DNA of 51,874 nucleotides, taken from the NCBI GenBank assembly GCA_015489595.1, contig WFZK01000002.1, positions 1-51,874 of the forward strand, in the 5' to 3' direction. Below are positions 6,570 through 40,045 of this stretch, piece after piece (the first letter of the stretch is position 1; each line of letters opens with the position of its first letter). This DNA comes from Candidatus Dojkabacteria bacterium. GTDB lineage: Bacteria > Patescibacteriota > Dojkabacteria > GCA-002793355. A program made the translations under genes and the position numbers. Under the pieces are notes generated by a model. That model was not told the DNA's origin. It saw only the letters and a program-made list of their open reading frames with translations, and searched no databases.

Positions 6570-7232
6570 ATGAACTTCACCTATCAAGGCATTCAGTTTG
6601 CACTTTACGAGCACGATACCGCCTACGTAGGGTATCAGGGGAGGCACTTTTATTTTGATCCTTTTAAAGTACCTGAGGGATTGCCCCCTGCTGATGTTAT
6701 CTTTATCACCCATGATCATTTTGACCACTTTTCACCTGAAGATATAGATAAGCTAGCCACAGAAGCTACATCTCTTGTCGTGCCTGAGAGTATAGAAACC
6801 GTTGTAAAACAGAAGGTTAATCTTCGCCTCTATTCAGTAGAGATCGGCGAGACGTATACCCTTTTTGATCTAGAGATAACCCCTATTCCGGCCTACAACG
6901 TGAACAAATTTAAGGCTCCGGGAGAGGTTTTTCATCCTAAAGCTGCGGGATACGTGGGATACTTTGTGAAGTTTGGTGAAGTAGGAGTTTACTTTGCAGG
7001 GGACACCGATGCTATCCCAGAGATGCAGCAGCTTAAGGGGAAAGTTGATGTGGCATTCTTACCAATATCTGGGACTTATGTAATGACTATGGAGGAGGCA
7101 CTAGAGGCTGCAGAGATGATTGGGCCGAAGATTATTGTTCCTATGCATTATGGAGCAATCGTAGGAGAGCCAGATATGGGCCGCAAGTTTGCTCAGATGG
7201 TTGGTGATAAGTATATTGTTTATCCTAAATAA
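6570..7232 (+). CDS. MBL-fold metallo-hydrolase (UPF0173/UlaG-like)
   Basis: THDHFDH, YFAGDT, PMHYG motifs. Confidence 0.92.
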   Translation: MNFTYQGIQFALYEHDTAYVGYQGRHFYFDPFKVPEGLPPADVIFITHDHFDHFSPEDIDKLATEATSLVVPESIETVVKQKVNLRLYSVEIGETYTLFDLEITPIPAYNVNKFKAPGEVFHPKAAGYVGYFVKFGEVGVYFAGDTDAIPEMQQLKGKVDVAFLPISGTYVMTMEEALEAAEMIGPKIIVPMHYGAIVGEPDMGRKFAQMVGDKYIVYPK

Positions 7233-7744
7233 TGCAGAAGTTTATCCGCCAGGCTTATCAGAAGCACAAGCGCGATCTGTATACATATGTTTTTTACCGT
7301 GTGAAAAATCAAGAATTAGCAAGAGATATCGTGGCAGAGGTTTTTCTAAGGCTTACCAAAAACATCCACAAGCCAGGCGTAAAAAAATATCTAAGGGCTT
7401 GGCTTTTTAGAGTGGCTAGAAATTTAGTTGTTGACTATTATCGAGATGCTTATTACTCCAAGAGCCGCTCTTTGAAACAGGGTTTAGTAGAAGACGATGC
7501 CTACGCCAAGATAGAGAGCAAGATAGATAGTGATAAACAGCTTAAAATGTTATCTAAGTGCTTTAAGTTGCTAAGCCCAGCCTATCGGGAGATTATTGAG
7601 TTCAGAGTTTTTATGGGGTTACCCTACAGGGAGATCTCCGTTGTACTTAATATAAGTGAAAGCTCAGCCAAAATGAGGTACAAGCGAGCAATCGATAAAC
7701 TAAAACAGTTGTGCAGTGATGAAAAGATTAAGTCAGCTGCTTGA
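7232..7744 (+). CDS. ECF RNA polymerase sigma factor
   Basis: Region 2 (ARDIVAEVF...AWLFRVARN...DYYR) and region 4 (LPYREISVVLNISESSAKMRYKRA). Confidence 0.93.
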   Translation: MQKFIRQAYQKHKRDLYTYVFYRVKNQELARDIVAEVFLRLTKNIHKPGVKKYLRAWLFRVARNLVVDYYRDAYYSKSRSLKQGLVEDDAYAKIESKIDSDKQLKMLSKCFKLLSPAYREIIEFRVFMGLPYREISVVLNISESSAKMRYKRAIDKLKQLCSDEKIKSAA

Positions 7745-10700
7745 GAGATTTTTTAAAGAGTTTAAAGATGAGGTTCAGCAAAGCTTAGACGGAGAGGCCT
7801 TAGATGCGGTAGTGGAGCGCAAACTGGGTTTTAAGCTCTACCCTAAACCTAACTATTTTAAGTATGTGGGTTTTTTGTTCGGGATGCTGATAGGGTTTGT
7901 TTTTTTAGTTTGGTACATCCCTCAACTAAGATCCTATGTGTTGGTTTCTACAGGCGTATATAGATATGCTACTGTACACGAGCTTAAGACAGCAGCTAAA
8001 GTAAATCCGAAAGATTCTGTAGGTACGGTTACAATAGATCTAGGGAAGACTCCGGTTTCTGATAGTATTAGGAGTTTCGTAGAAGTAGTAGCCTATGAGA
8101 AGAATAAGAGAATCCCTGTAAAATTTGATGTTTCGAGTAATGGTCCACGTGTAAAGCTTACGATTCGTGACCCTGCTTATGACTTTGTTGTTGTTCGTAT
8201 TAAGAGGGGACTGATGTTTACTGATAATACAGTGTTAAAAAATGATCTGTCTCGTTTGATCTTTTTAAGGCATCGGCCGTGGTTTAATCTGGTAGACTCC
8301 GGATTTGTGCCGGCCTCTTTTCGCGTGATTGAATTCTGGTATGATCATGATTTTTCACGGAGTCAAGATAAGGCACGTTCCCTTAACGCTAGAGGCGATT
8401 TTAAGCTTAAGACTGGGCAGAAACATTTTGCAGAATACGATGCAAGCAGACTTTTCTCGGTCGCAAGGCCAGCTTCGCTTAATATAGATGGGATTGCTTT
8501 TAAGGTCTATCCGGTTCCGGCAGGAAAGTATGTAAAACCCAGGTTTACCTATGTCTCAGATGGGGAGTTTCGTTTTGGTATGCGGGGAGGTGACTTTGGG
8601 CCTTTTCAATTTAAGCTGTACAAGGCAGATTTAAATCAGCTTGAACCTTATTGGTCTTCTTTTGCGCAAAAAGATATTAAGCTTAACACAGGGCCTCCTT
8701 TTAAGGCCTATAGCAGTGCGCAGCAAGAGGTAAAAGTTCCGTACGGGTTGTATATTTTAGAGATTAGCTCAGAGAGCTTTAGCGAGAAAGTCCCAGTGGT
8801 TTCTACGCCCCTTAAGGTATGGAGCTTTTATGATTCTAGCTCTCGAGTTTTGTATTTTGCAGGTTTAGAAAAGAAAGAGCCGCTTACTCAGTATTCAGCT
8901 AGGGTTTATGTAAGATACCTTGATGGCTCTACTGAGGCTAGAGATCTCAGGGTCTCCAACACATTAGGTTCTTTAGAATTCTCGAAACCTTTGGCAGATT
9001 ACGCAGTGCTGGTTTTCTATAAAAATCGCTATGGTTTTACTTCCAATGTGGCTGAAGACAACTATCAAAAAGCTCTGTCTTCTCTAAAACCGGTATCTGA
9101 TTCTGTTATTTGGTTGGCAGGTGGTCGTGTAGCTCAACTCCTCAGGCGTGACGGTAGTTTTGAGCTTTACGGAAAGCAGGTAACAAGCGTAGGTTACTGT
9201 GTGTTGCCTCCTGGTAGGGTAAGAGGGCTAAAAAAACCATATCTTGAACTCTTTAGACAGAAGCTACGTGTAGACAATTTGTTCGGAGTTGTCTTCGTTC
9301 CGGCAGATAAGCTTTCAGAAGCCTACCAGTCGTGCGATGGAGCTGTTTATGTAGGTGTGTATGATGGGGACAAGCTGGTTGGCATACATAAATATTCAGA
9401 ACCTGCAGAAAGGCGTGATCTGCCGGCGCTGTTTATTGATCCTAGCTTAAAAGTAGTTAAAAAAGATCAAAAGGTTAGGGTGGCAATTGTTAGGGTACCT
9501 TATGCAGAAAACAAGCTAGATTCGCTTGTGCTGTCGTTTTACAGGTTAGATATCAGGCGAGGGCAGATCTTTAAGGGTGAGTTTATTTCTAAGAAGACTT
9601 TTAAGCTAGGAGAAGATCAGCAGAGCTTTGTTTTTGAACCTGCCAATATGATTGGAATTCCAGCCTATGTTGAGGTAACAGGTCTAAGAGATGGGCAGGT
9701 TGTGGACACAGAGGTTGTATACTATCTCCCCGAACCAGTGTTGTCAGTGGATCTGTCTAAAGGTGGATTTATAAAGAGTGTAGTTGACCCCGTGAGCGTA
9801 AGATTTAGTTCTTACAGTGGCGAGCTTATAGGAGCAATAGAGATTATAAACCACAAAGGTGAGATAGTAAAGCCCTTAGAGGGGGTTCATAAAGATTATA
9901 AGCTAGATTTTGTTTCTCTTCCTGAAGGAGAATATTATGCTAGGGTATACAAGAATAAACGGCTGTTGCAGGTTCTTTACTTAGGGAAAGTCATAGGCAG
10001 CGCTCAGAAATCCCAGATCCATGTTTCTGAAGATAAAAATCGTGTGGATTTTGGGATTCCTCAGACCGGCACTACAGAGTTTCTTGCGCTAATAAGAGAC
10101 GGGGTTTTGGCTAGTTGGACCAGGCTTGATCTGACCAATCCTTACATTGGCAAATTAGATTTTAAGAGGGATTACACGATTTGTCTGGGGAACTCCTGTG
10201 TAAAGAATGTCAGAACCGTTCGGGATTTTGCGTGTGAATATAGAACGAAGGCAAATGATTTGGTGATTGAAAATCTACCGGTAAATGCTGGTATGGCAAT
10301 CGTTAAAATAGGCGATCTTGTGCATTCTTATAAGATAAAGCAGGGAGTTTTAGAGATTAGCGGTCGAGGGGTTCAGTTGCCTCCTGGCCTGTATAATGCA
10401 GAAGTTTACCTTCTAGGTAAAGGGATAGGGGTATACAGATGTAGAGTAAAGATCCCTGTAAAAGCAGGAGTATACTTTAAGGTAGAGGGCCAGAAGGTTT
10501 TGATCTTTAACAACACGGCTAGCTCATTTGGAGATACACTTGTTTTTAGACAGAAGAATCATTTTGTGCCTTTGAAGATCGCGCCATTTAGTACTGCGAT
10601 GGTTAAATTGCCTTTTACTCCAGAGAAGCTTGAGTTTAAGAAGACTAAAGATGCAAAGCTACTGCCTGAATATAAGTTAGCCCAAGTCCTGCGCAAGGAT

Positions 10701-10871
10701 ACCTTATCGACCCTTTATAAAGATGTAGATTGGCTTGTTGCCCAGATAGTTGAATCCCTGTATGCTCGTGATAAGGAGCGGTTGGATAAACTTCTTCAGC
10801 AGCTTAAGCCTTTAAGCTATGAGCACTGGCTGAGGTTTAAATATTATGAGCAGAAGGTATTGGGAGAGTAA
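7716..10871 (+). CDS. Large single-TM protein with ~980-aa extracytoplasmic beta-rich region; putative anti-sigma/sensor
   Basis: Overlaps ECF sigma 3' end; short N-terminal cytoplasmic segment, TM at about residues 47-67; start may be ATG 7719. Confidence 0.75.
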   Translation: MMKRLSQLLERFFKEFKDEVQQSLDGEALDAVVERKLGFKLYPKPNYFKYVGFLFGMLIGFVFLVWYIPQLRSYVLVSTGVYRYATVHELKTAAKVNPKDSVGTVTIDLGKTPVSDSIRSFVEVVAYEKNKRIPVKFDVSSNGPRVKLTIRDPAYDFVVVRIKRGLMFTDNTVLKNDLSRLIFLRHRPWFNLVDSGFVPASFRVIEFWYDHDFSRSQDKARSLNARGDFKLKTGQKHFAEYDASRLFSVARPASLNIDGIAFKVYPVPAGKYVKPRFTYVSDGEFRFGMRGGDFGPFQFKLYKADLNQLEPYWSSFAQKDIKLNTGPPFKAYSSAQQEVKVPYGLYILEISSESFSEKVPVVSTPLKVWSFYDSSSRVLYFAGLEKKEPLTQYSARVYVRYLDGSTEARDLRVSNTLGSLEFSKPLADYAVLVFYKNRYGFTSNVAEDNYQKALSSLKPVSDSVIWLAGGRVAQLLRRDGSFELYGKQVTSVGYCVLPPGRVRGLKKPYLELFRQKLRVDNLFGVVFVPADKLSEAYQSCDGAVYVGVYDGDKLVGIHKYSEPAERRDLPALFIDPSLKVVKKDQKVRVAIVRVPYAENKLDSLVLSFYRLDIRRGQIFKGEFISKKTFKLGEDQQSFVFEPANMIGIPAYVEVTGLRDGQVVDTEVVYYLPEPVLSVDLSKGGFIKSVVDPVSVRFSSYSGELIGAIEIINHKGEIVKPLEGVHKDYKLDFVSLPEGEYYARVYKNKRLLQVLYLGKVIGSAQKSQIHVSEDKNRVDFGIPQTGTTEFLALIRDGVLASWTRLDLTNPYIGKLDFKRDYTICLGNSCVKNVRTVRDFACEYRTKANDLVIENLPVNAGMAIVKIGDLVHSYKIKQGVLEISGRGVQLPPGLYNAEVYLLGKGIGVYRCRVKIPVKAGVYFKVEGQKVLIFNNTASSFGDTLVFRQKNHFVPLKIAPFSTAMVKLPFTPEKLEFKKTKDAKLLPEYKLAQVLRKDTLSTLYKDVDWLVAQIVESLYARDKERLDKLLQQLKPLSYEHWLRFKYYEQKVLGE

Positions 10872-10923
10872 TTTAGGGGCTGGGGCCCCAAAGGAAGTTA
10901 GCGATAACGGACTGTCCTGTATG

Positions 10924-10953
10924 TTGACTTTATAGGGTTTAATGGTATATAAT
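10924..10953 (+). promoter_or_regulatory. Sigma-70 promoter for small peptide gene
   Basis: TTGACT (10924-29), 18-nt spacer, TATAAT (10948-53). Confidence 0.65.
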
Positions 10954-11036
10954 ATCTTGTACTTTGAAAAGGGGAGGGGAAAGGAGTTAGTAGGATGTCC
11001 TATTTCTCCTTTTGGAAGAAAATAAGGAGGTGAACC

Positions 11037-11126
11037 ATGATACTGCTTGTTTTCCTGATATTGATAATAGTTGGAATAGCCATATTTGTAGGATACATGC
11101 GCTGGATCAGCCAATTCTTCGAATAG
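11037..11126 (+). CDS. Unannotated 29-aa hydrophobic peptide MILLVFLILIIVGIAIFVGYMRWISQFFE (type I toxin-like)
   Basis: Perfect SD AAGGAGGTGA at 11024-33, upstream consensus promoter, single TM helix. Confidence 0.75.
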   Translation: MILLVFLILIIVGIAIFVGYMRWISQFFE

Positions 11127-11215
11127 GTCATTTAGCCCTGTATGAATAATTTAACCCCCTCCCCTTATTCTCTCTCTGGAGTCTCTAATACTTATTGAGC
11201 GTTTGAACCTTTAGG

Positions 11216-12538
11216 TTAGCCTCTTTTTACTGCCAAAAAGTAAGTAATGTTATCTTTCATGTCTTCTAGGTTCGATTCAACTACTGTAAGGTTGTACAGC
11301 TGGCTTAGGGCTATAGGGCCTAAAATGGCTGTGGTTTTTGGGAGTTTTCCTTTAACTAGGGCGTGGGCCGCCTTTGCAGTGTCAATGAGCTCTCCTTTCC
11401 CTGTAATCTGTTTAAGATGTGGATACTTTTGTTTTAGACTGTTTTTGCATTGCTTAAAGACTTGGGGATGGGCCATAATGGCTTTAAGTTCTGAAGTTTT
11501 CACGTCTTTGAGCTTCATAAGATGATGATGAATCGGGATTCCGAATTGGTCTATTATCTTTGCCTTAAATCTTGATAAGGCTTCAACCGACTCCCAGACC
11601 ATCCCTCCGTGAGAATTAAAAGCTGCGAATATTCCAATGTCTATATCACCGTAGTTTAGGGCTTTAAGCACATTGGCTGTGGTGTACAGGTACTTTATTT
11701 TGGGTTTGTTTATCTTTTTAGCTTTGATAAATTTTGTCGCTGCGATCTCGTTAAAACTTCCGGGTCCTCCTTGGATTCCAATGGTTGTGTATGGGGGATT
11801 GGCTTTGGTGGACAGGACTTTATTGTGAATTTTTTCAATCGCTTGCATTAGTTTTATGCGCATAGCCTTGGTGTAAGGGTTGTATCTTTGTAGGTCTAGG
11901 AAGAGTTCCATGGTATCATTGGTGGTCTGAACTGTGAGCTCGTACAGTTTTTTAGCGCCCATGGTATCAATCGGTGTGGGTTTAAGTCCGAATTTGGCAA
12001 GGGATCTACCTAAGAAATGTACGACTCCTTGCGAGAAGGCAGCCATCTTGTCGTGCTGTTTTGGGGTAAGTTCAATTACTTTAAGTCCTAGGCTTTCGAG
12101 GGTACGCTTCCAGAATTTAAATTCGTCTGAAGGGGCCGATAAGTTATGGATAACCCAAGGCAGTTCATCAAAACCGTGTCTGCTAGAGTCAGGTCCAAAC
12201 ATTGGATGGTTTAAAATTACTTTTCTAGGATACTTTTTGATGGCTTGCCTTAGCACTTCATAAGGGTGCATCTTGACAGAGAGAACATCAAAGATCGTGG
12301 TATCTTCAGGTACATATGGTAGGTGTTTTAGTAACACGCGTTTGAATTTTCCGATAGGTACAGCGAAAAACACTGCTTTAGGATTGTGGCTATAGAGGCT
12401 TTTAATTGAAGTAACAATGGTTACATTTTTTACCCTTTTTACGTCAGGATCAATACCAATAAGTTTGAATTCTGGTGACAGGAGTCTTGCCAGTGTTTTT
12501 CCGAAGCGGCCGAGGCCGACTATGGCGATTGTGTCCAT
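11216..12538 (-). CDS. Prephenate dehydrogenase-prephenate dehydratase fusion (TyrA-PheA, no ACT domain)
   Basis: N-half GLGRFG, DVLSVK, HPMFGP, HDKMAAFSQ; C-half QGGPGSFNE.A, NSHGG.V, HPQVFKQC, TAKAA, N.TYF. Confidence 0.88.
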   Translation of the reverse strand: MDTIAIVGLGRFGKTLARLLSPEFKLIGIDPDVKRVKNVTIVTSIKSLYSHNPKAVFFAVPIGKFKRVLLKHLPYVPEDTTIFDVLSVKMHPYEVLRQAIKKYPRKVILNHPMFGPDSSRHGFDELPWVIHNLSAPSDEFKFWKRTLESLGLKVIELTPKQHDKMAAFSQGVVHFLGRSLAKFGLKPTPIDTMGAKKLYELTVQTTNDTMELFLDLQRYNPYTKAMRIKLMQAIEKIHNKVLSTKANPPYTTIGIQGGPGSFNEIAATKFIKAKKINKPKIKYLYTTANVLKALNYGDIDIGIFAAFNSHGGMVWESVEALSRFKAKIIDQFGIPIHHHLMKLKDVKTSELKAIMAHPQVFKQCKNSLKQKYPHLKQITGKGELIDTAKAAHALVKGKLPKTTAILGPIALSQLYNLTVVESNLEDMKDNITYFLAVKRG

Positions 12539-12556
12539 TAGGTATTGTAGTGCAAT

Positions 12557-12607
12557 TTAGGGCGTGGGGCAAAATGCGGGAGTAGCGCATTTTGCCCCAC
12601 GCCCTAA
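12557..12607. repeat. Dispersed palindrome family copy 2
   Basis: Perfect 22-bp arms TTAGGGCGTGGGGCAAAATGCG, 7-nt loop. Confidence 0.95.
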
Positions 12608-12683
12608 GGTGGGCTCGTCTTTCATGGTGGAGGAGAGTCGCTATACGTAGGGTTATTCAAAAAAACTTGGGAGGGAAGCAATT

Positions 12684-12735
12684 TTAGGGGGCTTACGCAA
12701 AATCGGCTTTTTTCGATTTTGCGTAAGCCCCCTAA
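12684..12735. repeat. Dispersed palindrome family copy 3
   Basis: Perfect 22-bp arms TTAGGGGGCTTACGCAAAATCG, 8-nt loop; includes the stop codon of the O-antigen ligase-like gene. Confidence 0.95.
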
Positions 12736-14105
12736 TTTCGTCTTTTGTCCCGATGTATTCCCCACCACCAGGTAAGAGGGTCCCAGAATCCGAAGTAGAA
12801 AATGGTTGATACGGATAAGAAAGGTAGGGCTAGAGAAAGCGCGGTTGTAAATGCGCTGTCAGCGGAGGGTTTGTCTAAGGTAATCTTTATTTGTCTTATG
12901 TAAAGAACCCACAGATATATAAGTATAGCCACATAAACCACAAAGCCGGGTAGGCCTTGTTCCATAATAAGGGTGGCATAAAGTGAGTGGGCAGATGCTC
13001 CAAATTTAGCTTTAGGATCGATCTTCTCAATGTACACCATGGGAAAACTCCCTAAGCCCCATGGGATAAGTTTGTGAGACAATGCAAGCTTTACAGCTAT
13101 TGAGCTTAGACGCACATGGGTTCTTGCTGAGGCATCTCGGGTTACAGAGAATACGGATTTTACATATCTTGTGGTTGTTTTAATTACTTGAGATCTTACG
13201 GGTGTCATAAGGATAAGGCCTACTATAAAAAGTGTGGTAAGAATTGTCCTTACTGCAACCAATTTAATCACCGATAGCGCTATTGAATGTTTCTTTACAA
13301 TTCCGTAAGCTACCAGTGGGGCCATCACGGCGATAAAGCCCAGCAGTGCACTTCTTGAGAATGTAAAGATGTAATTGCCTATTGTCAGTATTTGAATCTT
13401 TGTGAGCCAGTCGCTGTAATTTTGTTCAAGCTTAGGAGAAAGATAAAGTACAACAGAGATCGCAAGTACGATAAGTAGAAACATCGCATAAACGTTTGTG
13501 TCGCCTAAAAGACCAGGGGGACGAAGAATATAATGCTTGTAGCTTAGATATTGGGCAAGGGGCTTGTCTATAAAGTAGCCGTTGAATAGGAACTTTCTAA
13601 ATAGCAGTGGAAGTTTTTTGTATCCTGATCTGAATCTGTATATAGTGTAGACCTGTAGGATACTTAGAAGAAAGCCGTAGGCCACGATAAAAAACATCGC
13701 CTTTATCCAGAGTCCAATAATCTTAAGTTTTAGCCTGGATTTTATAAGCCATCTAGCCCAGATTGATGTGGCAAATCCCAGGAGATAGCTTATATGAAGA
13801 TAGGCGAGCATACTTATGCTCAAAGAGAGGTATTTACTAAACACTAAGCTTATGAAATTTACTAAGCTAAGAGAACCGAAGATTATCACTTGAATTTTGT
13901 ATGTTTGTAAAAATTGTTTTAGCCCAAGATCAGCGATTTCTAACAATACTATCACTGCAGCGATCGCACTTAAGAGTAGGAGCCCTGGATTTATATGTTT
14001 GTTTAAGGAGCTAATAGATATGGTAACCGTAAAGGCTCTAAATAAAAGTAGTATCGGAGAAAAAGCCCACAATATAAGCATCGTGCGCTTTAGGGATTTT
14101 TTCAT
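12732..14105 (-). CDS. O-antigen ligase/Wzy_C family membrane protein
   Basis: Multi-TM; R..G..GD.N, TFSRSA, WG.G.F, AHSLY...E.G..G motifs; start placed at 14105 by -10 position. Confidence 0.88.
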   Translation of the reverse strand: MKKSLKRTMLILWAFSPILLLFRAFTVTISISSLNKHINPGLLLLSAIAAVIVLLEIADLGLKQFLQTYKIQVIIFGSLSLVNFISLVFSKYLSLSISMLAYLHISYLLGFATSIWARWLIKSRLKLKIIGLWIKAMFFIVAYGFLLSILQVYTIYRFRSGYKKLPLLFRKFLFNGYFIDKPLAQYLSYKHYILRPPGLLGDTNVYAMFLLIVLAISVVLYLSPKLEQNYSDWLTKIQILTIGNYIFTFSRSALLGFIAVMAPLVAYGIVKKHSIALSVIKLVAVRTILTTLFIVGLILMTPVRSQVIKTTTRYVKSVFSVTRDASARTHVRLSSIAVKLALSHKLIPWGLGSFPMVYIEKIDPKAKFGASAHSLYATLIMEQGLPGFVVYVAILIYLWVLYIRQIKITLDKPSADSAFTTALSLALPFLSVSTIFYFGFWDPLTWWWGIHRDKRRN

Positions 14106-15273: not shown

Positions 15274-16551
15274 GTGAGGGTCGCCATAGTACATGATAAA
15301 CTTTGTGAGCCCGGAGGGGCAGAGTTTATTCTTAAGATACTTATGAAAATTTTCCCTAGCGCCGACATTTACACATTATTTTATGACCGGACGCAGTATC
15401 CTTTTCTTAAGGAGAGGCGTGTGATTACTTCTTTCCTTGACGTGATATGCAAGGTGCCCCTTCTAAAATCAAGATACAGGTTGCTGTTTCCTTTTGTATA
15501 CTGGGCTTTTTCGAGTTTTGATTTAAGCGCCTATGATGCGGTAATTAACATCAGTTTTATAGGTGGACACACTGCTGGGGAGAAGGCTTTAAGTTCAGAT
15601 GTAGCAAAGCAGAGTAACATGCGGCGAGTTTTAGGTTCTGTAGACGGGTTTGCCGTTGGCAAAAAATCTGATGCCGGTTTACAGATTCATACTAACGGCG
15701 GTATTCCTAACAGAAAGCCTTTAAAAATTGTATATTTCCAAACTCCTCCTAGACATCTGTGGATAGAGCAAGACAGATATTTGTCGTCTGTTCCGGGAAT
15801 TTTTCTCCCCATTGCAAAGAAGGTTTGGAATTATCTAAAAGCGAAAGACTTAAATGTGGCCCCGTCGCTGTGGTATGTTTTAGCTAATTCTACAGAGGTA
15901 AAAAAAAGGGTTGAGAAGGTCTACGGCATAGACAACGTGCAGGTGCTTTATCCACCAGTTGAGGTAAGAAAAATAATTAAGGCGAGGCAGGTGCGCCGGG
16001 TTAAAAAAGGCGATTTCTATCTTATTCTTTCAAGGCTTATGGAGTATAAGCGTTTTGATATAGCAGTTTCTGCGTTTGCGTCTCTAAGGGTAAAAAGATT
16101 GATTGTGGCAGGGACAGGGCCAGAACTCGCTAAACTCAAGCGTATAGCTTCCGGGGCGAAAAATATAGAATTTTTAGGCCGTGTCGACGAAGCTACTAAG
16201 CTAGATCTGTTGGCAAGGGCAAAGGCATTGATTTTGCCTGGAAGGGAAGACTTTGGGATTGTGATGGCAGAGGCTTTGGCTGCAGGGACCCCAGTGATTG
16301 GGTACTACAAAGGAGGGGCTGCCGAGATACTTACGGGTAGGCAAGCAAATGTTGCCGAACCTGGCCTTCAGCCTGGTGGCGTTTTGATTGAAGACCAAAC
16401 TGTTAAAGGAATTGTTTCAGCTATTAAGCTAATAGAGAAGCAGCGCTGGCCTGTTAGAAAGCTTCAGGCTTTAGTTGAAAAATATGATGTCTCAAACTTT
16501 GTGGAGAAGTTTAAGGACGAGGTCTTTAAGGGGCTTGCGCCGGAATCGTAG
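15274..16551 (+). CDS. Glycosyltransferase family 4
   Basis: RVAIVHD...GGAE, YKR.D, EDFGIVMAEALAAGTPVI motifs. Confidence 0.93.
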   Translation: MRVAIVHDKLCEPGGAEFILKILMKIFPSADIYTLFYDRTQYPFLKERRVITSFLDVICKVPLLKSRYRLLFPFVYWAFSSFDLSAYDAVINISFIGGHTAGEKALSSDVAKQSNMRRVLGSVDGFAVGKKSDAGLQIHTNGGIPNRKPLKIVYFQTPPRHLWIEQDRYLSSVPGIFLPIAKKVWNYLKAKDLNVAPSLWYVLANSTEVKKRVEKVYGIDNVQVLYPPVEVRKIIKARQVRRVKKGDFYLILSRLMEYKRFDIAVSAFASLRVKRLIVAGTGPELAKLKRIASGAKNIEFLGRVDEATKLDLLARAKALILPGREDFGIVMAEALAAGTPVIGYYKGGAAEILTGRQANVAEPGLQPGGVLIEDQTVKGIVSAIKLIEKQRWPVRKLQALVEKYDVSNFVEKFKDEVFKGLAPES

Positions 16552-16596
16552 GGTTGGGGGCAAAAATCGACTTTTCTCGATTTTTGCCCCCAACCC
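16551..16596. repeat. Dispersed palindrome family copy 4
   Basis: Perfect 20-bp arms GGGTTGGGGGCAAAAATCGA, 6-nt loop; begins at GT4 TAG stop. Confidence 0.95.
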
Positions 16597-18047: not shown

Positions 18048-19267
18048 GTCTTAAGAAGCTGGGTGATGTAATCTTCTAGTTGTCGCACATCGGCGTATTT
18101 GAGATAGGCCTGTATCTGTTTTTCTCTTAGCAGCTTTGCTTCTTTGTTTGATAAGAGATATTTTAAAATAAGTAAAGCGAGCCTTTCGGGATCGTCGGTG
18201 TTTGGGATTGTTTTCGTAAGCCCTGCCGGAAGGCCTTCTAGACCTTTCGTGGTAGATATCGTAGGGATTCCCATCTGTAGGTTTCTTAAGATTTTGATCT
18301 TTATGCCTGATCCCATCCAGATTGGGGCTATTGCCAAAGTGGCTGACCTGAAAAATTCCTTTACTTTATCTTCAGGAATAAACCCTGCCAGGCTGACCCC
18401 AGGGGCACTAGACACCGCCTTTTTTAAAACCTCAGGAGCATTTTTACCTGCGATTACGAATTGAGCATTCGGTGCCTTGGCGTAAATTATGGGCCAAGTT
18501 TTTTTAAGGAACCTTAGTATTCCTTCTAAGTTAGGATACCACTTAAGGTTAGAGAGGATCTTAATCGTTGGAGTTTTTCCTGGACTATATGTTACAAAGT
18601 CTGGTTTGAAGAATCCCGGCGGGTACGTCTCCACATTTTTTATCCCCCAGCTTTTAAATGTCTGAGCATCTTTTTGGCTGATAGATGTGACCAAATCGAA
18701 CTGTTGCAGGAAATATTTCTCATTTTTTTGAGCTAAGAAAAGTTCAAGATATAAAGGCAGCGTTGTTAGTTTTTTGATTCCAGAGGCATAAACAATGTAG
18801 TCCTTAATCAGGTTAGATTCTACGTTGTGAGAAAAGAATATGAATTTTGGTCTAGGCGAACTTCTGTTGATGACTTTTCGAATGTGAGGAGCGAAAACCA
18901 GGGGGACAGCTTTATCTATAATAACGTGGGTAAATCTTTGAGATTTGATAAGTTCGACAACTGTGCTTAGAAAGCGCTCGGAATAGTCGCGATAGAAGTA
19001 GTATGATTTGCCGTGAGTCCAGAAGCTAAGCATGCGTGATCTTGGGGCCCTTGTCCATTTGACCAGATATATCGGCAAATCTTTAAACTCCTGAAGGTGG
19101 GCTTCTTGAGGTTTAAAGACGTCTTCCTGAATATACGTAACTACTGTTGGATTCGTGGTCTTTTTTATAGCGCGAAGAATGCTGGCCGTTACGTTTCTGC
19201 CTCCGTCTGTCTCTGGAAATGGCCAGAAGCTTGTTATAAACAAAACTTTGGGTGCTTTAGAAGGCAT
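18044..19267 (-). CDS. Glycosyltransferase family 4
   Basis: P.P..DGG, HNVE, W.PN.EG, P...GSGIKIKI...G.P.IST..G.EG. Confidence 0.9.
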   Translation of the reverse strand: MPSKAPKVLFITSFWPFPETDGGRNVTASILRAIKKTTNPTVVTYIQEDVFKPQEAHLQEFKDLPIYLVKWTRAPRSRMLSFWTHGKSYYFYRDYSERFLSTVVELIKSQRFTHVIIDKAVPLVFAPHIRKVINRSSPRPKFIFFSHNVESNLIKDYIVYASGIKKLTTLPLYLELFLAQKNEKYFLQQFDLVTSISQKDAQTFKSWGIKNVETYPPGFFKPDFVTYSPGKTPTIKILSNLKWYPNLEGILRFLKKTWPIIYAKAPNAQFVIAGKNAPEVLKKAVSSAPGVSLAGFIPEDKVKEFFRSATLAIAPIWMGSGIKIKILRNLQMGIPTISTTKGLEGLPAGLTKTIPNTDDPERLALLILKYLLSNKEAKLLREKQIQAYLKYADVRQLEDYITQLLKT

Positions 19268-21437: not shown

Positions 21438-21488
21438 GGGCTTAGGGGGGCAAAAATCTACCTTTCTCGATTTTTGCCCCCTAAGCCC
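21438..21488. repeat. Dispersed palindrome family copy 5
   Basis: Arms GGGCTTAGGGGGGCAAAAATC / GATTTTTGCCCCCTAAGCCC (one bulge); between convergent stops. Confidence 0.92.
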
Positions 21489-23252: not shown

Positions 23253-23391
23253 GTAAAGATTATACAGGGACGGTTGAGATTTTCCAATCCTAAATGGATG
23301 GTTTTTGTAGGGGGGGTATTCAATGGGATAAGGGAGGCGCAGTTTAAATAGGGCGTGGGCAGCTTTCTGTATAGATGGAGATATCTATGTA

Positions 23392-23442
23392 AGGGGTGCG
23401 GGGGAGAATTTGTTAAGTTTCAAATTCTCCCCCGCACCCCCT
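23392..23442. repeat. Dispersed palindrome family copy 6
   Basis: Perfect 21-bp arms AGGGGTGCGGGGGAGAATTTG, 9-nt loop; between divergent genes. Confidence 0.93.
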
Positions 23443-23498
23443 ATTTGCATTTAAGAATTTCTTCTGATATACTACCTAAGCTTTTAAGAATTTGGCTC

Positions 23499-39643: not shown

Positions 39644-39699
39644 GTAGGGGGGCTGGTGGCAAAATCGTAGAGACTCGATTTTGCCACCAGCCCCCCTAC
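39644..39699. repeat. Dispersed palindrome family copy 7
   Basis: Perfect 24-bp arms GTAGGGGGGCTGGTGGCAAAATCG, 8-nt loop. Confidence 0.95.
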
Positions 39700-39999: not shown

Positions 40000-40045
40000 G
40001 GGGCTGGGGCGAAAATCGACTTTCTTCGATTTTTGCCCCAGCCCC
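40000..40045. repeat. Dispersed palindrome family copy 8
   Basis: 20-bp arms GGGGCTGGGGCGAAAATCGA with one G.T mismatch, 6-nt loop; immediately after TAA stop. Confidence 0.93.

Follow-up and report, generated by a model that had tools for sequence, protein, structure and literature searches.

A candidate gene for a 29-residue membrane peptide, with a message predicted to close on itself, in a CPR/Patescibacteria-like genome

The longest intergenic gap of the window (the whole stretch of 51,874 nucleotides that was analysed), 344 nt between an orphan membrane protein gene and a convergent gene of aromatic amino-acid biosynthesis, raises the question of whether it harbors a small gene of its own and, if so, what the product of that gene might do. 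Based on four independent signals found within 250 nt, namely a promoter, a Shine-Dalgarno (SD) sequence, a hydrophobic open reading frame and RNA structure, we propose, with a probability of about 0.55, that it holds a genuine stand-alone gene, which codes for a lineage-restricted, single-pass membrane peptide of 29 residues in the genome of an ultra-small CPR/Patescibacteria-like bacterium, and whose mRNA is closed by a long-range stem. The listed sequence features together exceed chance.

Signals and product of the mini-gene

The features of the locus are the following.
7716 to 10871, forward strand: orphan 1051-aa membrane protein, the upstream neighbour, overlapping an ECF sigma-factor gene (7232-7744)
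10924 to 10953, forward strand: sigma-70-type consensus promoter, TTGACT-18-TATAAT, 11/12 matches, one of 10 genome-wide
10960 to 11036, forward strand: predicted 5' leader of about 77 nt
10966 to 10979, forward strand: GAAAAGGGGAGGGG, the 5' arm of the long-range stem, made up of an A-tract and a G-rich run resembling an SD; duplex energy -24.0 kcal/mol
10980 to 11012, forward strand: predicted leader hairpin, AAAGGAG (10980-86) with CUCCUUU (11006-12), with an inner 6-bp stem
11018 to 11054, forward strand: predicted hairpin over the translation start region, -10.7 kcal/mol, at every transcript length of at least 100 nt
11024 to 11033, forward strand: SD sequence AAGGAGGTGA, 6 nt from its GGAGG core to the ATG
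11037 to 11126, forward strand: open reading frame of the 29-aa peptide MILLVFLILIIVGIAIFVGYMRWISQFFE, with a predicted transmembrane (TM) helix at residues ~2-21 and a short polar/aromatic tail
11156 to 11170, forward strand: CCCCTCCCCTT.ATT, the 3' arm of the long-range stem, then a U/C-rich tract; 30 nt after the stop codon
11216 to 12538, reverse strand: convergent fused prephenate dehydrogenase/prephenate dehydratase gene (tyrA-pheA); Pfam PDT 2.4e-34, PDH_N 1.5e-11

The promoter, the leader hairpin, the SD sequence, the reading frame with its one predicted TM helix and the complementarity of the two ends had all been claimed in a preliminary description of this DNA, and each of them was found where that description had placed it. 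The promoter scan recovered TTGACT (10924-29) and TATAAT (10948-53) across an 18-nt spacer with 11 of 12 consensus positions matched, while the other three promoter-like sites in 10000-12800 match at 9/12 each; the count of such sites in the region, four against 5.6 expected from shuffles, is not above that of the shuffles. Across both strands of the 825,502-bp genome the pattern TTGAC[AT]-N16-18-TATAAT occurs at 10 sites, the promoter of the mini-gene included, where our own composition estimate would predict about two. All 10 face a downstream gene, and one of them lies 184 nt before the 16S rRNA; others precede genes that we take, by eye, to be GroEL-, S6- and ThrRS-like. From the position of the -10 box, we infer that transcription starts at about 10960, which would give the leader of about 77 nt.

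The signals for translation are comparably uncommon. The SD 10-mer has only two copies in the whole genome and can form an 11-bp duplex of -15.9 kcal/mol with the 3' tail of the genome's own 16S rRNA (...ACCTCCTTA), whereas an SD of at least 5 nt precedes only 39 of 613 long open reading frames. Promoter, ribosome-binding site, start and stop follow one another in the correct order and at the correct spacing. The peptide itself, with one run of ~20 hydrophobic residues within its 29, has a hydrophobicity of 3.54 and ranks first among 1642 ATG-initiated frames of 25-40 codons, the next value being 2.99; it is also one of only two intergenic small frames in the genome that combine an SD with a TM segment. 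Five of its last 13 residues are aromatic (Y, W and FF among them), with FF standing just before the stop. Since the promoter, the SD, the extreme hydrophobicity and the mRNA structure with its 5'-3' pairing are independent signals, they support a tightly organised small membrane-protein locus; this part of the earlier inference stands, while the type I toxin that had been proposed along with it was drawn by analogy and is not established. A 100-aa reverse-strand frame (10812-11114) was considered as the true gene and rejected, as it has neither a Pfam family nor a credible relative in 220 other genomes of the class; likewise, no frame of the region in the other frames or on the opposite strand belongs to a Pfam family.

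Predicted fold of the message

The two ends of the predicted transcript are joined by a stem of 14 bp, which includes a perfect 11-nt inverted repeat (I14), AAGGGGAGGGG at 10969-79 with CCCCTCCCCTT at 11156-66, 176 nt apart. In ensemble folding the arms are paired with a probability of 0.99 (0.01 unpaired). The forward strand of 10959-11175 folds at -70.4 kcal/mol (z = -4.45, with 0/200 shuffles as stable), the reverse strand at -53.7 kcal/mol (z = -2.04), and the interior without the arms is mildly structured (z = -2.19). When the 344-nt intergenic region was shuffled 300 times with its dinucleotides preserved, a perfect inverted repeat of at least 11 nt appeared in five of the shuffles; at the scale of the window I14 is not exceptional, given that four such repeats with arms more than 100 nt apart (I9, I12, I14, I16) occur in 51.9 kb and about three are expected by our own estimate.

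The long-range stem engages an SD-like decoy at the 5' end rather than the SD itself. In the folds the nascent 5' arm pairs first with the CU-rich tract of the leader and only afterwards with the 3' arm; the partner of that CU-rich strand is the upstream decoy and not the SD, and the local fold of 10978-11014 has an energy of -15.7 kcal/mol. The preliminary description had envisaged the leader CTCCTT as the alternative partner of the SD in a regulatory switch. The folds speak against this: the SD is expected to form 0.0-0.13 base pairs with the CUCCUUU tract of the leader at all transcript lengths tested, and a fold forced into the alternative lies ~13 kcal/mol above the minimum, a value that is indicative only, since the pairs imposed were shifted by one position, an error of which the ensemble pair counts are independent. 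The comparison of full-length and 3'-truncated forms, put forward as a check of the same idea, places the SD in the same -10.7 kcal/mol hairpin both times, with a mean unpaired probability of 0.40 and 0.41, respectively. Because the SD never pairs with the leader CUCCUUU and sits in the same hairpin in both forms, no SD switch appears in silico.

Instead, the folds suggest that the SD is partly masked by the start-region hairpin, and constitutively so. Part of it is predicted to pair with a U-rich tract inside the reading frame, CUUGUUUUC, with the AUG left in a 13-nt loop; thermodynamic prediction gives an unpaired probability of 0.30-0.34 for the SD core and of 0.94 for the AUG. This hairpin is more structured than 96% of 603 crudely defined gene starts in the genome, 4% being equally structured, and its energy is lower in magnitude than that of the duplex between SD and anti-SD (-10.7 against -15.9 kcal/mol). 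The open AUG, together with an SD accessibility that is the same upon 3' truncation, argues against the message being an inert toxin mRNA, as far as modelled folds can be trusted. A start-region hairpin of -10.7 kcal/mol would also suit a toxin-like message whose translation is deliberately damped, and was counted against our preferred reading.

In the reading that we prefer, transcription would begin near 10960 from a consensus housekeeping promoter, and the 30S subunit would be recruited via the unusually long 11-bp match of SD and anti-SD, in competition with the moderate hairpin on the SD. The peptide would enter the membrane with its N-terminus out and its C-terminus in, an orientation suggested by the single Arg after the helix. 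The C-rich 3' arm, once made, would pair with the G-rich 5' arm, both lying outside the region covered by ribosomes, and the mRNA of ~205 nt would thereby be closed into a compact structure. The stem, in a terminator layout with the gene as its loop, might protect both RNA ends and help define the 3' end; we propose that it probably stabilises or ends the message. Should it truly do so, the mini-gene would offer a compact model of mRNA end-protection in a minimal genome.

Distribution and surroundings of the locus

Judged from its sequence, the mini-gene is a well-formed orphan and a single-genome case. At the DNA level, comparison with 40 relatives returned only chance fragments of at most 40 nt, and the best non-self match of the peptide in 220 other genomes of the class (E = 0.007) is among TM-like chance matches, 27 of 30 non-self matches falling in open frames of at least 117 aa; the relatives searched stand at genus-plus distance, so that absence from them says little. 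Synteny was followed from both neighbours: tyrA-pheA has a match in six of 10 genomes of the family, none of them with the mini-gene, and the upstream 1051-aa protein in 0/10. No such frame lies beside tyrA-pheA in the relatives G003 (59% identical) and G006, and no comparable downstream frame accompanies 10 metagenome tyrA-pheA loci of 42-51% identity. The peptide matches no Pfam or NCBIfam family at E <= 1, and its best PHROGs match is a family of unknown function at E = 0.027. A degenerate pattern of its last nine residues has 0 matches in genome contigs and 0 in viral contigs, and the exact peptide is absent from a collection of 15 billion proteins; small membrane peptides routinely escape gene callers.

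The pattern of the two arms, AAGGGGAGGGG-N160-190-CCCCTCCCCTT, was found in 71 stretches of genome contigs, all from unrelated phyla, with hosts that include Bacteroidales, Sphingomonas, cyanobacteria and Desulfobacterota-like MAGs. These stretches belong either to multi-copy repeat families, distinct from one another, or to short palindromes in tandem, and 0/73 arm-pattern segments resemble the interior of the locus in the window; the shared 11-mer, a common hairpin or repeat motif, was therefore rejected as a sign of homology. Among sequencing runs, this stretch was found in one DNA run, the probable source, with no RNA run listed, and the reads over 10900-11215 showed no variant, a comparison that covers only the contig of that probable source run.

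In its own genome the locus is single copy, and MITE status was rejected on that ground; the check for paralogous loci proposed in the preliminary description likewise found no paralogue of the mini-gene. A foreign-cassette origin was also rejected, the GC content being 0.39 at the locus against ~0.41 around it. A tblastn search against plasmids and phages, in which the low-complexity filter may mask the peptide, gave no sign of a plasmid or phage association. The upstream 1051-aa membrane protein is, by inference, a likely anti-sigma factor.

Role of the peptide and other readings of the locus

One class of stand-alone bacterial small membrane proteins, of fewer than 50 aa, modulates transporters, kinases or respiratory complexes. 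The mini-gene is like this class in size, in its one TM helix followed by a short polar tail, in having its own promoter and in its strong ribosome-binding site, and unlike it in having neither homology to a curated family nor an adjacent partner gene that would suggest a target; to our knowledge, an mRNA closed 5' to 3' is not a described feature of the class. By default we take the peptide to modulate a membrane protein or to be a subunit of one, with a toxin as the main alternative. Because ultra-small symbiotic bacteria have few spare genes, yet this mini-gene is equipped with rRNA-grade expression signals, it is probably important to the cell.

The toxin alternative envisages a type I toxin-antitoxin-like module, in which a membrane-damaging peptide would be made from a stable folded mRNA that is checked by an antisense RNA and activated via RNA processing; we consider it unlikely. 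At 29 aa the peptide is well below the limit of 60 aa for the small hydrophobic, membrane-targeting peptides of type I systems, and its top rank in hydrophobicity and single-TM character fit the class, as do the long leader, the pairing of the 5' and 3' ends, the partial trapping of the SD by a downstream anti-SD in the -10.7 kcal/mol hairpin and the several CU-rich anti-SD-like tracts of the transcript. A narrow distribution and orphan status, both seen here, are typical of type I toxins.

Against this, no RNA antitoxin with its own promoter was recovered in silico by scans that could miss a weak promoter or read-through from tyrA-pheA. The reverse strand of 10300-12540 has no promoter of at least 9/12 with a usual spacer, and the best relaxed candidate, TTATCA-19-TATCAT at 11067, has an unfavourable spacer and a quality that occurs at the background level of one match every ~50-100 nt. 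There is no second locus complementary to the mini-gene mRNA in the 93%-complete genome, and no toxin or antitoxin family matches in Pfam, NCBIfam or Rfam, curated models of the known type I families (Hok, Ldr, Fst, TisB, Ibs and others) included; at gathering score Rfam finds only two tRNAs over the window and no hammerhead or antitoxin RNA. The preliminary description had itself been unable to identify an antitoxin RNA positively. Moreover, as seen above, the long-range stem leaves the SD out, 3' truncation leaves it as it is, the AUG is open, and the duplex with the anti-SD is stronger than the masking hairpin.

Among known toxin systems, the locus is nearest to aapA/IsoA and hok/Sok. SD-trapping hairpins and 5'-3' long-distance interactions are outlined as hallmarks of aapA3 and hok (PMC6733600; PMC5416894). 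As the Helicobacter pylori aapA/IsoA systems are outlined in these accounts (PMC5416894, PMC6733600), the mini-gene appears like them in a peptide of ~30 aa, CU-rich anti-SD-like tracts in the 5' UTR, an SD in a local hairpin and a 5'-3' long-distance interaction in the full-length mRNA. In aapA3, however, according to the outline in PMC6733600, the long-distance interaction itself sequesters the SD, which is freed by 3' trimming, whereas the stem of the mini-gene is predicted to pair a 5' decoy and truncation has no effect in silico. The mini-gene also differs from aapA/IsoA in having no IsoA-like antisense promoter opposite its leader, in being single copy and in the lack of any sequence similarity found. 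With hok/Sok of plasmid R1 and enterobacterial chromosomes, whose mRNA is outlined as stable and highly folded with a metastable 5' structure (PMC6733600, PMC5416894), it would share a small TM peptide, a folded mRNA with paired ends and, in the folds, a comparable metastability of the 5' arm, which pairs first with the leader CU tract and then with the 3' arm. Unlike hok/Sok, it has no Pfam Hok match, no mok-like overlapping frame with an SD, no Sok-like promoter, no Rfam antitoxin and no plasmid or phage association.

The possible sources of an antisense RNA would be an sRNA not recognised in these scans or the convergent tyrA-pheA gene, between the stop of which and the mini-gene the terminator scan detected no terminator-like site on the reverse strand, so that read-through is conceivable. 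The specific version in which a 29-aa membrane toxin with a self-closing mRNA has the read-through 3' end of tyrA-pheA as its antidote, with no dedicated sRNA, is in our view very doubtful; if it held, the peptide would rise when the genes of aromatic amino-acid biosynthesis are switched off. A full-text literature search yielded no paper on type I toxins in CPR/Patescibacteria, and a type I module here would, if real, be the first of its kind in an ultra-small bacterium of the CPR/Patescibacteria type; a toxic peptide would bring a major uncultured radiation within the reach of type I toxin-antitoxin biology.

Another reading regards the locus as mainly an RNA or termination element with an incidental reading frame, which would separate the anti-sigma-like gene from tyrA-pheA as a bidirectional terminator or insulator, or else be a structured non-coding RNA; we think this quite unlikely. 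As in intrinsic bidirectional terminators between convergent genes, an A-rich tract, a GC-rich stem and a U-rich tract follow one another in both orientations; elsewhere in the genome (C5, ~18690-18720) the C-run of the 3' arm recurs as the 3' half of a terminator-like hairpin that has a short loop and is followed by a T-run; the interior is mildly structured; and the long perfect hairpins present between other genes of the window are missing from this convergent pair. Yet the stem has a loop of 176 nt, which holds a complete gene with its SD and is far outside the norms of terminators, the usual hairpins of this genome having stems of 14-24 bp and loops of 4-16 nt, and on the reverse strand no free U-tract follows it. 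The terminator scan reported nothing in 10900-11215, in spite of the stem and its A/U tracts, and no Rfam family matches the locus at E <= 1 (only chance matches of E = 2.4-4.3 in 10800-11300). An RNA element would also leave unexplained the consensus promoter aimed inward, the 11-bp SD at ideal distance from the ATG and the most hydrophobic small reading frame of the genome. The 176-nt loop makes the stem no canonical terminator under our preferred reading of a membrane-peptide gene either, and was counted against it.

It could alternatively be supposed that the locus is an antisense or interference unit, in which the strong promoter drives transcription into the 3' end of tyrA-pheA and translation of the aromatic tail tunes read-through past the long-range stem and hence aromatic amino-acid biosynthesis, a proposal that we hold to be highly improbable. 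It is suggested by the convergent layout, with no canonical forward-strand terminator until about 12472-12735 in the terminator scan, by the aromatic residues crowding the end of the peptide and by the product of tyrA-pheA, which makes the precursors of Tyr and Phe. By our reasoning the logic would nevertheless be reversed, for stalling upon Phe shortage would favour read-through and thus repress pheA; stalled ribosomes would cover neither arm, the 3' arm lying 30 nt past the stop; TM peptides normally have aromatic residues at the ends of their helices; and neither G003 and G006 nor the 10 metagenome loci keep the linkage to tyrA-pheA.

Finally, the motifs might have come together by chance in a spacer that has no function. 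The unremarkable standing of the inverted repeat at window scale and the count of promoter-like sites would agree with this, but it deserves hardly any credence in view of how rare the promoter (10 per genome), the SD 10-mer (two per genome), the top-ranked hydrophobic reading frame (1/1642) and the repeat (5/300) are in combination, all in correct order and spacing, and of a streamlined genome with short spacers that has the longest gap of the window at this very place.

The probable mini-gene and its surroundings

The genome that contains this contig (C2) amounts to 825,502 bp in 47 contigs, with a completeness of 93.5% and a contamination of 1.7%, and the sole public sequencing run in which the stretch occurs, a DNA run labeled hydrothermal vent metagenome, is probably its source. 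Loss of ribosomal protein L30 is associated with the CPR/Patescibacteria radiation; L30 finds no match in this genome, whereas it is present in 13 of 14 control genomes. Together with the small genome and the sizes of its class relatives (0.5-2.3 Mb), this fits an organism of the CPR/Patescibacteria type. The mini-gene locus lies inside a 344-nt gap with convergent genes on either side, the longest gap in the window between listed ORFs of at least 120 aa:

Features of the locus and its neighborhood
7232-7744, + strand: ECF sigma-factor gene, 170 aa (Sigma70_r2 1.6e-13, Sigma70_ECF 4.1e-6)
7716-10871, + strand: upstream neighbor, an orphan membrane protein of 1051 aa, overlapping the ECF sigma-factor gene
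10924-10953, + strand: promoter, TTGACT-18-TATAAT
11024-11033, + strand: Shine-Dalgarno sequence (SD), AAGGAGGTGA
11037-11126, + strand: 29-codon ORF for a predicted membrane peptide
10969-10979 with 11156-11166: perfect 11-nt inverted repeat
11216-12538, - strand: downstream neighbor, a fused prephenate dehydrogenase/dehydratase gene, tyrA-pheA (PDT 2.4e-34, PDH_N 1.5e-11)

The best reading of the locus, judged from its sequence, is a real mini-gene that would be translated, namely an orphan small membrane-protein gene with a predicted structured mRNA. In its favor, the promoter is of the top tier, the SD is maximal and ideally spaced, and no other small ORF in the genome is as hydrophobic; these signals coincide in the largest spacer that this streamlined window has. 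All the elements listed in the preliminary description are present; its interpretation of them as a type I toxin-antitoxin-like or tightly regulated small membrane-protein locus is partly supported.

The promoter matches the consensus at 11 of 12 positions. Sites of the form TTGAC[AT]-N16-18-TATAAT occur 10 times in the genome on both strands, against about two expected from a base-composition estimate, and every one has a gene downstream (10/10). In one case the 16S rRNA follows 184 nt downstream, and others precede genes that we take, by eye, to code for proteins resembling GroEL, ribosomal protein S6 and threonyl-tRNA synthetase. Three end just 5-7 nt ahead of a start codon (C8 17938, C19 20645 and C39 4688, on other contigs of this genome), which suggests leaderless mRNAs at these places. 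The SD 10-mer has two copies genome-wide and pairs with the 16S 3' end of the same genome (...ACCTCCTTA) in an 11-bp duplex of -15.9 kcal/mol; SD use is rare in this genome, as just 39 of 613 ORFs of at least 150 aa have an SD of at least 5 nt near a candidate start. In hydrophobicity the ORF ranks first among 1642 ATG-ORFs of 25-40 codons, its best 18-residue window scoring 3.54 against 2.99 for the next, and just one other intergenic small ORF of the genome, unrelated to it, likewise combines an SD with a TM-like segment.

The 1051-aa upstream protein has its N-terminus in the cytoplasm, followed by a single TM segment and a large ectodomain that is an orphan. Pfam gives it no family above the cut-off, and 10 family genomes have no match to its C-terminal half; the protein is probably a giant anti-sigma factor. 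Nearly all of window positions 1-46000 displays a + strand GC skew of +0.14 to +0.28 regardless of gene orientation, an unusually strong strand asymmetry.

Folding of the transcript and the type I toxin alternative

Folds were predicted for full-length, 3'-truncated, 5'-truncated and nascent forms; these are equilibrium predictions for one sequence, in which kinetic traps are possible. The predicted + strand transcript folds at -70.4 kcal/mol (z = -4.45), with none of 200 shuffles equally stable, and this stability is strand-specific, since the - strand reaches -53.7 kcal/mol with z = -2.04. Most of it comes from the closing stem: the interior without the arms has z = -2.19, and the duplex of the 5' arm (10966-10979) with the 3' arm (11156-11170), predicted in full-length RNA with an unpaired probability of 0.01, has an energy of -24.0 kcal/mol. 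As a sequence feature, the inverted repeat underlying this stem is statistically the weakest element of the locus: when the gap is dinucleotide-shuffled, 5 of 300 versions contain one of that length, and the four long-range repeats of such length in the window are about the number expected by chance.

The proposed AAAGGAG/CTCCTTT leader hairpin is there, and with an inner stem it is predicted at -15.7 kcal/mol. The SD is predicted to pair instead with the in-ORF tract CUUGUUUUC, in a third hairpin (11018-11054, -10.7 kcal/mol) that forms at all lengths of at least 100 nt and whose loop contains the AUG (0.94 unpaired). The suggested pairing of the SD with the leader CU tract is essentially absent (0.0-0.13 expected pairs); a forced alternative fold lies about 13 kcal/mol above the MFE, a figure that is indicative only, its enforced pairs being one position off register. 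In the 81-nt nascent leader the CU tract pairs with the 5' arm (7.7 expected pairs), which the 3' arm captures later. At full length the SD has a mean unpaired probability of 0.40; a cut before the C-arm or at the stop codon gives 0.41 in both cases, and the C-arm reaches the SD only when the 5' arm is removed (SD core unpaired probability 0.09). Of 603 crude gene starts, 96% are less structured than the start region of this ORF; among 36 starts that bear an SD, the share is 83%. The folds of the arms and of the SD hairpin thus point to an mRNA whose 5' and 3' ends close on each other and whose SD is masked in part, but in these predictions the fold-back would not gate the SD.

These predictions bear on the most interesting rival, that the locus is a type I toxin-antitoxin-like module. 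In peptide class, leader, end pairing and throttled SD it shares hallmarks given for type I loci in two accounts (PMC6733600, PMC5416894). However, no processing-dependent switch appears in the predictions, no antitoxin could be identified, and the gene is without paralogues or family membership, and we consider such a module unlikely. A consensus scan of 10300-12540 found no - strand promoter matching at least 9/12 positions; the best - strand candidate of a relaxed scan, TTATCA-19-TATCAT at 11067, is equaled every 50-100 nt on both strands. The locus is single-copy, complementarity to it beyond about 18 nt occurs nowhere else in the genome, and its best Rfam match has E = 2.4, with none to a ribozyme; its base composition gives no hint of a foreign origin. 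As the - strand has no terminator-like site between the tyrA-pheA stop and the ORF, antisense read-through from that gene, a source suggested earlier, is possible. Full-text literature searches returned no paper joining type I toxins with 'candidate phyla radiation' or 'Patescibacteria'.

For a translated small membrane-protein gene, the long-range stem can coexist with translation because both arms lie beyond the ribosome-covered region, 58 nt separating the 5' arm from the AUG and 30 nt the stop from the 3' arm. Its A-tract, GC-stem and U-rich segment are laid out much like a terminator whose loop would be the gene, and on contig C5 the C-run of the 3' arm recurs in a terminator-like hairpin with a short loop, where it makes up the 3' half. 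Based on these three points, we propose that the stem might protect both transcript ends and help set the 3' end. On contig C6 (26427-26496) another GGGGGAGGGG / CCCCTCCCCC inverted pair, its arms 49 nt apart, lies directly 5' of TGCTATAAT and a start codon, presumably that of a UvrA-like gene.

Distribution among relatives

The locus DNA yielded chance fragments only against 40 relatives, and the peptide's best match in 220 other genomes of the class had E = 0.007, 27 of its 30 non-self matches falling within frames of at least 117 aa. Behind the closest tyrA-pheA fusion (59% identical, in relative genome G003) comes a gene for 167 aa that runs in the same direction, and behind a tyrA-pheA fragment in G006 an unrelated ORF; none of 10 metagenome loci with 42-51% identity carries a comparable ORF downstream. 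The exact peptide is absent from a collection of 15 billion proteins, belongs to no Pfam or NCBIfam family, reaches E = 0.027 at best in PHROGs and has no tblastn match in plasmids and phages; a degenerate pattern of its C-terminal nonapeptide has 0 matches in genome_contigs and 0 in viral_contigs. The locus may simply be confined to a lineage from which a single member has been sequenced. The fusion itself is common to the window gene and genus g4 (G003); in G001 the tyrA and pheA halves lie at separate places, and in G004 and G010 the match is limited to the dehydratase half.

Recurrence of the arm 11-mers was rejected as an indication of homology: with a gap of 160-190 nt between them, the arms are matched in 71 stretches, every one in other phyla. 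These belong to distinct repeat families of many copies or to short palindromes in tandem, and their interior is unlike that of the mini-gene, so G4AG4/C4TC4 is a commonly reused hairpin motif. These AAGGGGAGGGG / CCCCTCCCCTT pairs (loci L049-L119) come from Bacteroidales, Prevotella, Sphingomonas, cyanobacteria and Desulfobacterota-like MAGs; some elements have 16-31-bp terminal inverted repeats and are MITE-like, others being tandem short palindromes.

Repeat hairpins of the genome

Perfect hairpins with a stem of at least 14 bp number 142 in this genome, most belonging to two related types, ...GGGGCAAAA plus ATCGA..TCGAT and GGGCGTGGGGCAAAATG..CATTTTGCCCCACGCCC:

Hairpin sites
In the window: 12557-12735, 2663-2716, 16551-16596, 21438-21488, 23390-23443, 39644-39699, 40000-40045
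Elsewhere (examples): C4 8916-9092, C5 12782-12959, C36 14873-15047, C41 3422-3601

Immediately 3' of the 1051-aa gene, TTTAGGGGCTGGGGCCCC (10872-10890) resembles the left arm of this family; it folds into a 5-bp GC hairpin only and may be a decayed member. At all 14 places examined, two such hairpins are close neighbors. Most of these places have one hairpin of each type on the two sides of an approximately 80-nt spacer, conserved across copies in two variants, and the whole amounts to an intergenic repeat element of about 190 nt. An Rfam E-value scan of three copies gave only below-gathering chance matches to miRNA hairpins. Candidate identities for the element are a terminator module, a MITE and a small-RNA family, and it could be of greater interest than the mini-gene.
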